From positions 42,782,001 to 42,846,000 of the forward strand of contig NC_087251.1 in the NCBI RefSeq assembly GCF_037042905.1: DNA of 64,000 bases, written 5' to 3'. Under the pieces are notes generated by a model. That model searched no databases. It had not been told where the DNA came from and was given only the letters and a program-made list of their open reading frames with translations. Source of the stretch: Lytechinus pictus. Its lineage: Eukaryota. Below are positions 727 through 7,632 of this stretch, piece by piece (within the stretch, counting starts at the first letter, position 1; each line of letters starts with the position of its first letter). The position numbers and the translations under genes are program-made.

Positions 727-1122
727 TCTACACAGTCATGTTCAGGGAGGAATTAATCATTGTTTCACTTGACAATGAGGAGACAGTTAGAATATTGATC
801 ATTATGTTCGACCTTTGGGCGGCTATTCATGGGGGGGGGGGGGACAAATTGACATTACTTATAGGGGGCATCGGAAAAAAGGGGGCATTGGAAAAAAAGT
901 GGGGGGCTGAAGCCCCCCCCCCCCCCAGCCCCCCCCCCCCCGCTTCCGCGGCCCCTGACACACACACACACATGTGTATATTTTATGACGACTCAAAATT
1001 ACTGGTCGTAGCTTCTTACGATCATCAGAGATTGGCGCAAAAAGAGAGATACTAAGCAGCTATACAAGTTTTGTATTGCCATTTTTTTTCCACTGATTAT
1101 TGAAGTATATATGGCACCGACG

Positions 1123-2451
1123 CACAGTGGGCCAGAATGAACCCAAAGTGCGCCAAAACCCATTATTCACACATTTGTATGATTAAATTTGGTAGATATG
1201 GGTAATTTCACCCGTAGAATTCAATAAAAGTATTTTCAAATATTGATGACGTCGTTAAAATACTGTTTTCTGATTGGCTGTTAATATTTGAGCAGAAATT
1301 ACATGTTTCTAATTCTACAATAAGTTTCAAATTTTCAGAAACTAGTTTTAGATACATTTCAGCAATAATTAAGCATATCAGCAAACAGCAAACACACAAA
1401 CAGGCAACCAAACCAGAAAAGTCTGTGCTCGGGGTACAAATAATTCAATTGGTGACCTGAGTATCGCTTAAAGAGGGCGTCCTACCATGAATCCGGAATT
1501 GTAAAATTCAAAGTGAAATTGTAAAAAAAAAAATGAAAAGGAGTATTTTTATTCCCTGTGTACAATGATTAACCACACCTACATGCATTAAAATGGATTG
1601 ATACCAGAAGTGGACAGTGAAATCTTTAAAATAATGATTCCAGTGATTAGAGGCCGGGTCCTCTGCAGGTTAATCAGTACAAGGCCCTACAAGCTAGGCC
1701 TACCAAGAACGGCGTATACAAAGTTATTCCGAATCAGAGTCTCTCTCTACTATCTCAACAACTATTATGTCTTTGGTGAGAAGATCTTTTTAGCATACAA
1801 CATCAGGGGGAAGAGGCTGTGATTGTTGTACTCTTAAAAACTTGCTCCTAATCACAATGTCACCTGTTACCATTAGCATGTGGAATACATATAAAGTCAA
1901 TGAGAATCATAAACCAAACAATCATTGAAATGATAATATACACTTCCTTCTTGATCGATACCAACAATTATAGCAAATTTAGAATGAGCCAAGAGATAAA
2001 CGAATTCATACGTGTATGTGAAGTTACAAACCCTTTTGGGGGATAAATACTAATAATGATAATGCAATTTATACATGTAATAGAGCCCACGTATATCCCA
2101 TATGTGTCCTATACACATTTTCATATTTTGTCAGAAAACTGCGAGAGACCTATCACATCCCTAGTCATGTGTTATAGCGATATACAGTAGCCTCTACTTG
2201 GTTTATGAACAACAAACCAAATATATAATCTTACCCGGGAATCTTATACCTTAAGAATTAATCTTCTCAGTATGACAGCATATCAGATATGGAACACGGG
2301 ATGGAACAGTTTGGCATCAAAATGAAGTTGCGTTACATGTATTATTATATAGTTAGTGGAATTGGAAATGAAAGCTTGCCTTTACGTATGTTTAACGAAA
2401 ATATTTTAAAGGCAGACACCAGTCACAAGAGCCACACACTTGAGCCAGTTA

Positions 2452-2491
<40 letters not shown>

Positions 2492-3137
2492 CCCAGAACG
2501 CGACGGGGAGTTTGATGTTTAATGTCACCCGCAACGTTCGGCATGCACGCGCATATAATGGGTCAGTAACTTGGACCGATTTTTGTGATAAATACGGCGA
2601 ACATGTGGTTGAAAAATTTGTTATATCTCCAGAAAATGCACGTATATGCAGCTAAATTTGGTATCAGTGTAAAGCATGAACTATAACAAAGACCGCCATG
2701 GTATTTACAGCGCAGCAATCGGCAGCAATTTGTAAAAGAAATGCTCATGAAAAAAAAAATGCTAAAACACCCCCATTGTCAAATGGTTTCGTCCAAAATT
2801 GCCTCTGAAGGGATTATCATTTTATCTTGAAAATCTTTGATCACTTAAAACAATTATTCATCAAAGAGCACCGTGAATTAGAAATAAATTAAGCAATCCG
2901 TTTTGTCAAAACAGTGAAATATCAAAAACGTGTCATTTACACATGCGGTAGCCGTAAAGAGTAATTTTCCGGTAACATTGAATAAAAATGGGCAACTAAT
3001 ATTCAATTTAATGGAGAAATATTGTACGGAGGCATTCTACAGGTTCTTATCTTTGCTTAGAACATGAAAAAAACAAAATTTGTTTCATGACCAAAAACCA
3101 GTTTTGGCGCACTTTTGCTCTCTCCTGGCCCACTGTG
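1123..3137 (-). mobile_element. Non-autonomous (internally deleted) Transib-superfamily transposon
   Basis: TIR CACAGTGGGCCAG-N9-AAAGTGCGCCAAAAC at both ends; perfect 5-bp TSD CGACG (1118-1122 and 3138-3142); transposase remnant inside. Confidence 0.9.
1724..1888 (-). pseudogene. C-terminal remnant of a Transib transposase
   Basis: Manual translation gives VFHMLMVTGDIVIRSKFLRVQQSQPLPPDVVC*KDLLTKDIIVVEIVERDSDSE*. This resembles, from memory, the Transib C-terminus (DVFxxLLxxSDPxIS...LPxEVxxLL plus acidic tail). One internal stop; lies inside the Transib TIRs. Confidence 0.65.
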
Positions 3138-3418
3138 CGACGTTCTGTCCGGGGGTCAATTCTCACGCTATATATTTCACCAAATGTATACATATGAAGA
3201 AAAAGGCGAATAATATAATCAGGGGTGGCGGAGCAAATTTAAAAGTGGGAGGGGCACGGAGAAAATGGGGGTACTTCCTCTTTTGAAAAGTAACAATTTA
3301 AAAAGAAAATAGTCTACTATCTACCCCAGTGGCATAATGAGGCAAAAGTTTTGAGGGGAGCAGACTTGGTGTACGAATTTTTCTAAGCTGCGAGCAAGCA
3401 AATGTTGGCATAATTGTA

Positions 3419-4800
3419 CTTGATGCCCCCAGGGGACATCAACGTTTTTACCTTTTGGTACTCCTTGATTTCCCGATGATTCTTCGTTACCAAAATGTAA
3501 ACATTTCTTTTCTCACTATAAAAAAAAATAGAAAGTAGTTCTGGTTTGCGCTAGCGCACCCCATATGAGATGCGAGTACAAATGCGCAAACAGGTGCATC
3601 TAGATGAGCGCGCATCCTTGCCTCCTCATCTATCCTCTTATATTACTTGCACTTGATGCCCCCAAAATTGATGAAAGCAGTGATCCGGCGAGTAATCCTA
3701 GAAGTGTTGACAAAATTAACCTTGATAGCTAGATAATAAACTCTCTATTATTACTTGTACTTGATGCCCCCAAATTTTCTTTTTCTATTTTCTAGCCGCG
3801 CAAGCCTTCATAACATCGTCGAAACGAATTAACCTTGTTGGCTAAATTAACCTTGATAGCTAGAGAATAATCTCTCTATTATTTGCACTTGATGCCCCCA
3901 AAAATTTCAACAAAATTAACATTGTAGCCAAAATTAACCTTGTTGGCAAAATTAACCTTGAGAGCTAATGTAACCTTGAGAGCTATAGCTCGTCTCTCTT
4001 ATATTACTTGCACTTGATGCCCCCCAAAATTTCAACAAAATTAACCTTGTAGCCAAAATTAACCTTGTTGGCAAAATTAACCTTGATAGCTAATGTAACC
4101 TTGAGTCGAGAGCTAAAGCTCGTCTCTCTTATATTACTTGTACTTGATGCCCCCAAAAATTTCAACAAAATTAACCTTGTAGCCAAAATTAACCTTGTTG
4201 GCAAAATTAACCTTGATAGCTAATGTAACCTTGAGAGCTAAAGCTCGTCTCTCTTATATTACTTGCACTTGATGCCCCCAAAAATTTCAACAAAATTAAC
4301 CTTGTAGCCAAAATTAACCTTGTTGGCAAAATTAACCTTGATAGCTAATGTAACCTTGAGAACTATAGCTCGTCTCTCTTATATTACTTGCACTTGATGC
4401 CCCCAAAAATTTCAACAAAATTAACCTTGTAGCCAAAATTAACCTTGTTGGCAAAATTAACCTTGATAGCTAATGTAACCTTGAGTCGAGAGCTAAAGCT
4501 CGTCTCTCTTATATTACTTGTACTTGATGCCCCCAAAAATTTCAACAAAATTAACCTTGTAGCCAAAATTAACCTTGTTGGCAAAATTAACCTTGATAGC
4601 TAATGTAACCTTGAGAGCTATAGCTCGTCTCTCTTATATTACTTGCACTTGATGCCCCCAATTACTTTATTTGTTGCGCGATCAACCAAACCACGCGCGG
4701 ATGGATATCAACTCGCCGATGATAAACAGGGTCGGGTACGTCGTCGGTCGAGGATCCACGAATCAAGGTAAAAAAGTTGATGTCCCCTGGGGGCATCAAG
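3419..4800. mobile_element. Nested TIR element with TA TSD carrying a 125-130-bp tandem array
   Basis: TIR CTTGATGCCCCCAGGGGACATCAAC..TTTTACCTT at both ends; TA at 3417-3418 and 4801-4802. Confidence 0.85.
3880..4660. repeat. Tandem array of 125/130-bp units with 380-bp higher-order period
   Basis: Unit TATTACTTGCACTTGATGCCCCC...GCTCGTCTCTCTTA with internal AAAATTAACCTTG subrepeats. The near-identical spurious ORFs at 4004 and 4384 are exactly 380 bp apart. Confidence 0.95.
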
Positions 4801-6477: not shown

Positions 6478-6847
6478 GAGCAATTACCTACTAATTGCTG
6501 CTGCCGGTGTGGTGCGATATCAGTTTTGTCGCCCTCTACGTTCGTGAGTGAATTAAGAGTCCCCGGCGACAAGCAGGAATCGGATCGGGAGATGGATAAA
6601 GGATGGGGGGAGGGGGCAGATGGGGGAGGGGGGATGGCCCCGTAGAGGGAGTACACGACTTGTCCAATGTGGTGGATGTAGTAGGAGAGAGTGAAGTAAT
6701 GGCAGGTGATATAATAATCAGAGGACTTAAAAAGGGATGATATATATGAAGGGATCAAAGAGGGGGCGCGTGATCGAGGACACGTGCAATGGTATATAAT
6801 TATGTTGATGATGTTGTTTAAGGAATGATATACGTTGATATCTATAT

Positions 6848-7632
6848 ATGGATACAGAATACTTGGATACTATTATATTAAAACATGTATGGATATGAAT
6901 ACATGGATACGTGGATACTTGGATACTATTGGATACTTGGATACTTGGATACGTGGATACGCGGATACGTGGATACTTGGATACTATTGGAGACTTGGAT
7001 ACGTGGATACGGGGATACTTGGATACTGTTGGATACTTGGATACGTGGATACGCGGATACGTGGATACGTGGATACTTGGATACTATTGGATACTTGGAT
7101 ACGTGGATACGCGGATACGTGGATACGTGGATACGCGGATACTATTGGATACTTGGATACGCGGATACGTGGATACGCGGATACGTGGATACGTGGATAC
7201 TTGGATACTATTGGAGACTTGGATACTTGGATACTTGGATACGTGGATACGTGGATACGCGGATACGCGGATACGTGGATACGTGGATACTTGGATACTG
7301 TTGGATACTTGGATACTTGGATACGTGGATACGCGGATACGTGGATACTTAGATACTATTGGATACTTGGATACGTGGATACGTGGATACGTGGATACGC
7401 GGATACGTGGATACGTGGATACTTTGATACTATTGGATACTTGGATACTTGGATACGTGGATACGTGGATACGTGGATACTTGGATACTATTGGAGACTT
7501 GGATACTTGGATACGTGGATACGCGGATACGTGGATACGGGGATCTTATATACCTTTGGTTACATGGATACTTGGATACGCGGCTACGGGCACATGCCTA
7601 CATGAAAACTTAGATACATAGATACTTGGATA
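6848..7632 (+). repeat. 8-bp-unit minisatellite (GGATACGT/GGATACTT/GGATACGC)
   Basis: Directly visible array; it explains the three overlapping DTWIRGY ORFs. Confidence 0.97.

Follow-up and report, generated by a model that had tools for sequence, protein, structure and literature searches.

A 2-kb element in the sea urchin Lytechinus pictus, very probably a non-autonomous Transib copy derived by internal deletion

Introduction

Transib elements with ends resembling recombination signal sequences (RSSs) and with 5-bp target-site duplications have been in print since 2005, and the end blocks reported here are known from another sea urchin. In this study, we analyzed an element of this already known kind in a 64,000-nucleotide stretch of the Lytechinus pictus genome (NCBI RefSeq assembly GCF_037042905.1, contig NC_087251.1; C7:42782001-42846000), hereafter called the window. 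Together with its duplications, the element occupies window positions 1118-3142; it had been singled out in an original prediction made from the sequence letters. Our analysis indicates that window 1123-3137 is very probably a non-autonomous Transib copy that arose by internal deletion from an autonomous Transib of ~4 kb and that was likely moved in trans by the RAG1-related transposase of its family via cut-and-paste.

Two previously described elements come from Strongylocentrotus purpuratus. Transib1_SP is described as autonomous, 4132 bp long, with a 676-aa transposase encoded in two exons and a CGGCG duplication (PMC1131882). The consensus ends of Transib-N1_SP, as printed in supplementary Figure S4g of Kapitonov and Jurka 2005 (PMC1131882), read CACAGTGGGCCAG GGAGGAACC AAAGTGCGCCAAAA, with CGGCG and CGACG duplications. 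Compared by ends only, the family described here resembles Transib-N1_SP in the 13-bp block CACAGTGGGCCAG, the inner block AAAGTGCGCCAAAA and the 9-bp spacer between them; both are gene-less and have CGGCG/CGACG duplications. However, Transib-N1_SP is ~0.56-0.91 kb long and has the spacer GGAGGAACC at both ends, whereas the present family is 2.0 kb long, has two different spacers and retains 55 codons. A pattern search detected no exact N1_SP-type end in the present genome.

Transib is reported to cut DNA through nick-hairpin chemistry, and the duplications of Hztransib from Helicoverpa zea (structures 6pqn, 6pqr, 6pqu, 6pqx, 6pqy and 6pr5) are given as invariably 5 bp and slightly GC-enriched (PMC4840297). 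Hztransib has a homologous transposase and similar 5-bp GC-enriched duplications, but belongs to an insect lineage, and its ends are described as resembling the RSS heptamer and hardly the nonamer (PMC4840297); the sea urchin ends are known from sequence alone. The 23-RSS of V(D)J recombination, in turn, has the same consensus heptamer as the present ends, CACAGTG; in both, an A-rich block lies ~22-23 bp from it, and transposition gives rise to 5-bp duplications. Unlike RSSs, the present ends are equally spaced, without a 12/23 pair, and parse as 13 + 9 + 14 rather than 7 + 23 + 9. In addition, the V(D)J enzyme is RAG1/RAG2, whereas that of the present family is a Transib transposase with no RAG2-like gene.

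Results

The left end of the element starts on the plus strand with a terminal 13-bp block, CACAGTGGGCCAG (1123-1135), whose first seven letters (1123-1129) are the heptamer CACAGTG. A 9-bp spacer, AATGAACCC (1136-1144), follows, constant in length but varying in its letters between ends and between families, and then a conserved inner block, AAAGTGCGCCAAAAC (1145-1159), with an A-rich, nonamer-like part. The right inverted repeat (3101-3137, minus strand) is composed of the inner block at 3101-3115, the spacer at 3116-3124 (GAGAGAGCA on the complement strand) and the terminal 13 bp at 3125-3137, with CACTGTG, the complement of CACAGTG, at 3131-3137. Reading of the sequence and a repeat finder agreed on a 37-bp inverted repeat of 13 bp alike, 9 bp unlike and 15 bp alike, so that both the exact V(D)J heptamer and the 13 + 9 + 15 bp layout claimed in the original prediction were recovered.

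The nonamer-like motifs claimed at 22 nt from the heptamer were likewise found at both ends, as GCCAAAACC at 1152-1160 and as AGTTTTGGC (GCCAAAACT on the complement) at 3100-3108. When the left nonamer is read with a 23-nt spacer (CCAAAACCC), it also matches at 7/9; because both parses score 7/9, spacers of 22 and 23 nt cannot be told apart at this end. The 9-bp variable stretch and the 22-nt heptamer-nonamer distance are equal at the two ends, which is not the different-length arrangement of a 12/23 pair.

The element is flanked by CGACG on both sides (1118-1122 and 3138-3142), the perfect 5-bp duplication that had been reported, and is nested in another repeat (window 990-1122 and 3138-3330). 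The repeat to which the left flank belongs is matched 23 times in the genome, with 72-100% identity; this count includes the copy in the window. Three of the five paralogues checked (L086, L084 and L085) run uninterrupted, with a single CGACG or CGGCG at the exact insertion point, and demonstrate the 5-bp duplication of CGACG directly; of the other two, one has extra letters at the site and one an unrelated insertion. An unrelated 1.1-kb insertion lies at an almost identical point in the paralogue at C4:9785552 (L083).

The window belongs to an 812-Mb assembly, in which our genome searches scored part of their candidates (40/248 for a 2025-bp query made from the element, 86/173 for the transposase open reading frame introduced below). 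The end pattern CAGTGGGCCAG-N9-AAAGTGCGCCAAAAC had 219 exact genome matches and its reversed control had 0, so that these ends are not a product of chance. Exact 35-nt end patterns were present as 96 left ends and 91 right ends genome-wide, and the 2025-bp query yielded 49 matches, mostly full-length, with 92-98% identity. The 2-kb family comprises roughly 100 copies.

Both ends were present in 27 of the 30 loci fetched, with a mean pairwise identity of 0.965 among the 27 copies. Their 5-bp duplications were perfect in 24, differed by one mismatch in 2 and were unrelated in 1; the end search proposed alongside the original prediction, for which a lack of such duplications was the adverse outcome, thus found them nearly throughout. 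The 24 perfect duplications represent ~21 distinct sites, since flanks are common to L007, L016 and L019 and to L011 and L017. CGNCG accounts for 20/24 of the perfect duplications, and the flanks are GC-rich, often (CGG)n. A pattern designed for two copies spaced 5 bp apart had 0 genome matches.

Several of the ~21 sites belong to a single host repeat and are located in its (CGG)n tracts. Copies at L007, L016, L019, L015, L011, L017 and L078, as well as an array on C13 described below, lie inside such a tract, which reads '...gcttttccga CGGCG gcggcg...gtcaacat'; they are found in both orientations and at both tract edges. Some of them are probably duplicates of one insertion, and such a tract would act as a hot spot, given the preference for CGNCG as target.

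A GC-rich target, a 5-bp duplication and a terminal inverted repeat (~38 bp in the published description, section 9 of PMC1131882) that starts with CAC, has a heptamer-like end and contains a second, A-rich block are all as expected of Transib. With the GC-rich duplications in 24/27 copies, the CAC-initiated RSS-like ends and the coding remnant considered next, the Transib membership originally proposed holds.

Within the element, the longest open frame is 86 aa and 55 transposase codons are left, that is, there is no intact gene between the ends. The remnant (1724-1888, minus strand) comprises the last 55 codons, with one internal stop, and the original stop codon. It was recognized through a relative. 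A copy of the 2-kb family at C7:375118-393610 (18.5 kb), swollen by nested insertions and not autonomous, contains a 115-aa frame that matches HzTransib (PDB 6pqn, E 4e-08). With this frame as query, we identified a 495-codon stop-free open reading frame on the minus strand at C15:7470347-7471831 (L107:5848-7332; the C15 ORF). Its residues 44-455, 412 in all, align with residues 69-459 of the 497 of HzTransib (6pqn) at E 3.8e-83, whereas amphioxus RAG1L is matched at only E 5.8e-05. The remnant aligns to residues 441-495 of the C15 ORF, with 43/55 residues identical, an E-value of 3e-19 and the stop codon at the same position; a reading of the remnant as noise was rejected on these grounds.

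The remnant thus corresponds to the C-terminus of the C15 ORF, through which its homology is to Transib over other transposon superfamilies, as had been claimed from its resemblance to a Transib C-terminus. The protein search suggested for the remnant gave a mixed outcome, negative when run directly against Pfam and the PDB (no match at E <= 10) and positive via the C15 ORF. No match fell in the 55-codon stretch when RAG1-like open reading frames were used in tblastn searches, and Rfam had zero matches over window 900-3400.

The C15 ORF had 87 genome matches, of which 67 span only its last 48-69 residues, a signature of a deletion family. Public relatives are 697-707 aa long and have the same terminal motif, with P0151 being 69% and P0153 65% identical; the C15 ORF also has 63% identity to P0163, a protein predicted in S. 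purpuratus. None of the Pfam models matches sea urchin Transib transposases; a single relative scored 22.5 bits with the RAG1 model, which is under the cut-off of that model.

The exact V(D)J heptamer raises the question of whether the family is moved by sea urchin RAG1L/RAG2L instead, with its ends as natural substrates, as the link to ProtoRAG and RAG1L in the original prediction might suggest. The enzyme search with the Pfam RAG1 model (PF12940) retrieved 17 matches at E <= 0.001, a number that rose to 22 at E <= 10; every one of them, the weakest included, was of RAG1L type. RAG1-family searches returned only RAG1L genes because no Pfam model detects the sea urchin Transib transposase. In the stretches read around 12 RAG1-like loci, neither family ends nor a CAC/GTG pair with a 5-bp duplication was present, and the PF12940 matches, being of RAG1L type and without family ends, were rejected as the family enzyme. 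A phmmer search of 1.84 billion proteins with a RAG1L open reading frame was set aside as well; its best 150 matches all had E <= 7.5e-18, and the three least identical, which were checked, fit amphioxus RAG1L best, not Transib.

Convergent RAG1L-RAG2L pairs were observed at C182:16498-18156 (= C233:18651-20309) and at C4:15674907-15676589 (L052 and L053), with open frames of 612 and 624 aa. In each pair, the opposite strand carries a kelch-like frame, located ~1.7 to 3 kb downstream. A RAG1L fragment array at C9:18143020-18173215 has no Transib-type ends.

Mobilization by RAG1L/RAG2L would be consistent with these two pairs with long open frames (the C182 pair being duplicated on C233), with our failure to find an intact canonical Transib transposase gene and with a report of RSS cleavage in mouse cells by spRAG1L combined with mouse RAG2, precise at the heptamer (PMC4840297). 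However, the same report describes no recombination when spRAG1L and spRAG2L were co-expressed (PMC4840297), and 0/12 RAG1-like loci have family ends nearby. Moreover, the element retains the tail of a canonical Transib gene, implying that the parent encoded its own enzyme, and the relative of this tail is far closer to HzTransib than to RAG1L in the E-values given above. We therefore regard mobilization by RAG1L/RAG2L as very unlikely. The proposed ProtoRAG/RAG1L connection did not hold for this family: the RAG1L-RAG2L loci lack these ends within the stretches read, the family enzyme is of Transib type, and the element is not organized as a RAGL transposon.

Support for derivation from a Transib parent came from a decayed full-length copy at ~C8:38975668-39008137, which measures 32.5 kb with insertions. 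Its first part, C8:38975668-38976849, corresponds to element positions 1987-766 and is upstream of the transposase gene. Transposase residues 28-435 follow 8 kb later, at C8:38984980-38986169, then residues 392-594 at C8:38999349-38999957, in a piece with 3 stops, and residues 594-697 at C8:39007225-39007545. The last ~50 codons are overlapped by element positions 759-4, which continue as far as the left end at C8:39008137; this end is flanked by CGGCG.

Against this copy, window 1160-1723 (minus strand; element positions 4-759 match C8:39008137-39007393) is the 3' arm, which lay untranslated downstream of the stop codon in the ancestral transposase gene. Window 1889-3100 (minus strand; element positions 766-1987 match C8:38976849-38975668) is the 5' arm, which in the ancestral element was located upstream of the transposase gene, and contains a poly-C and (CT)n tract at ~2456-2492. 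Because the C8 copy is collinear with it, the 2-kb element consists of three parts: the 5' arm including the right end (1889-3137), the terminal 55 codons of the transposase gene (1724-1888) and, including the left end, the 3' arm (1123-1723). As judged from this alignment, ~640 transposase codons are deleted in the 2-kb element. The claim that the window holds an internally deleted copy is borne out by the two arms, which in the C8 copy lie on either side of the transposase gene. On C17 and C7, further deletion forms were detected that keep longer stretches of coding sequence.

The parent would have had a 1.26-kb 5' arm, a ~700-aa transposase and a 0.6-kb 3' arm. Without nested insertions it would measure ~4 kb, the size of the published Transib1_SP, which it also resembles in layout and, by the flanks of the C8 copy, in CGGCG; the likeness is to the published description only. 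Transib1_SP is autonomous, whereas here just the decayed C8 copy and the truncated, end-less C15 ORF represent such an element. An origin as a miniature inverted-repeat transposable element (MITE)-like sequence that merely acquired Transib-type ends, with the remnant a chance frame and no autonomous ancestor, is even less probable than mobilization by RAG1L/RAG2L: although the 55-codon stretch by itself has no Pfam or PDB match at E <= 10 and a 1.2-kb family (below) has only the end blocks in common, this origin is already contradicted by the remnant, aligned with its stop codon at the end of a 495-aa Transib frame, by the collinearity of both arms with the transposase-gene flanks on C8, and by the intermediate deletion forms on C17 and C7.

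The original prediction also held that an autonomous partner may survive. Transposase-coding relatives do exist in the genome, but none was found intact. Long copies bounded by the inverted repeats were examined for an autonomous element; all 15 widely spaced end pairs fetched (L043-L051 and L070-L075) proved to be the 2-kb element with nested insertions and were rejected as autonomous copies. Long open reading frames in several of these pairs looked reverse transcriptase- or endonuclease-like by eye.

Similarity between the C15 ORF and the element ends 14 bp past the stop codon, and a polypyrimidine-like stretch is present just upstream of the homologous part of this frame. P0152, an annotated protein of 321 aa, shares 97% identity with the C15 ORF, which could represent either a dead fragment or a domesticated exon within a host gene.

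A second Transib lineage was observed on C11, at 207313-208526, 432528-433757, 956800-958029 and 1177672-1188420 (L109, L113-L115 and L119). Its transposase copies are decayed, with many stops, and are 47-61% identical to the C15 ORF. One of them (L109, position 4992) adjoins an end resembling the left end of the 1.2-kb family.

This 1.2-kb family (L064, L065 and L069) is non-coding. It has the identical 13-bp block, the first 14 bp of the inner block and other spacers, and shares nothing with the 2-kb family beyond the end blocks. Seven ends with other spacers belong to the 1.2-kb family or to variants. In a comparison of five kinds of end, positions 1-13 and 23-36 were constant, and positions 14-22 and 37 onward varied. 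The blocks at 1-13 and 23-36 are invariant over three families, with the intervening 9 bp free to vary. As positions 1-13 and 23-36 never change while 14-22 do, the end is parsed as 13 + 9 + 14, and the V(D)J-like heptamer and nonamer are, by this comparison of sequences, located inside the 13-bp and 14-bp conserved blocks. The symmetric 22/22 spacing described in the original prediction is present at both ends and also in the 1.2-kb family; it is the norm reported for Transib (section 9 of PMC1131882; legend of Figure 2B of PMC8355894) and is not new.

A different arrangement was detected at C13:13881552-13892374 (L079 and L080), where three copies of the 2-kb family stand head to tail. Both junctions of this trimer read CTGGCCCACTGTG|CACAGTGGGCCAG, that is, CACTGTG|CACAGTG, with 0 bp between the heptamers. 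CGGCG flanks the array on both sides, one duplication for the whole array, and its members are 98.4-99.8% identical to one another. Two further junctions, at C13:13956303-13956328 (L076) and C13:14023749-14023774 (L077), are 70 and 137 kb away in truncated inverted duplicates. Genome-wide, heptamer-to-heptamer junctions number exactly these four. One contig of run X2 (1/4 runs) spans such a junction, one letter shorter.

Nested insertion was rejected as the origin of the array, because it would have left a 5-bp duplication and cannot explain a junction of 0 bp. The trimer could have preserved a Transib signal joint in the germline as a fossil; in this reading, blunt ends cut by the transposase were joined precisely, via an excised circle and a resident copy or between sister chromatids; we put this forward tentatively, at somewhat less than an even chance. 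Circular end-to-end forms are reported for hAT elements (PMC2803484). In one literature search, we encountered no publication that describes joints of this kind for Transib in a genome.

Elsewhere in the window, two tandem-repeat tracts (3600-4600 and 6830-7620) have periodic open frames in every reading frame.

Discussion

By analogy with Helicoverpa Transib and RAG (PMC4840297), a copy such as the one in the window would be mobilized when the transposase binds both end blocks and nicks at the CAC border. Hairpins would then be formed on the flanking DNA and a blunt-ended element released, which would be inserted with a 5-bp stagger into GC-rich DNA.

Several observations weigh against the view that the window element arose by deletion from an autonomous Transib. 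The searches, which scored only part of their candidates and could have missed an intact autonomous copy, yielded none. The C15 ORF corresponds to residues 251-681 of the 697-aa P0151 and lacks the N-terminal 250 residues, and no family ends occur within ~16 kb to its left or 12.7 kb to its right. The C8 copy is broken by insertions, has 3 stops in one piece and an unrecognizable right end. The 55-codon stretch has no Pfam or PDB match of its own, so that its identification depends on a relative from the same genome. End conservation across the 27 copies is inflated, as these were chosen by their ends. In addition, contigs of runs X2 and X3 connect 1090 to 3138 via 19 letters resembling the left flank, but because paralogous empty sites exist, these contigs may derive from paralogues and are not evidence of insertion polymorphism.

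Conclusions

On its own, the window copy is real but ordinary, and of little significance. Three points are of use for annotation. The 2-kb family as a whole provides a worked example of derivation from a parent, in which the arms, the breakpoints and the 55-codon tail can all be placed. The footprint conserved across families, 13 bp, 9 variable bp and 14 bp, predicts the end positions that are read by the transposase. The lack of a Pfam model is a blind spot: RAG1-family scans miss the enzyme, and statements that an enzyme could not be located may reflect a missing model. The C13 array is the single item of possible interest to researchers of V(D)J origin; if its reading as a signal joint is true, it would offer evidence from nature, in vivo, for a processing of Transib ends similar to that of signal ends in V(D)J recombination.

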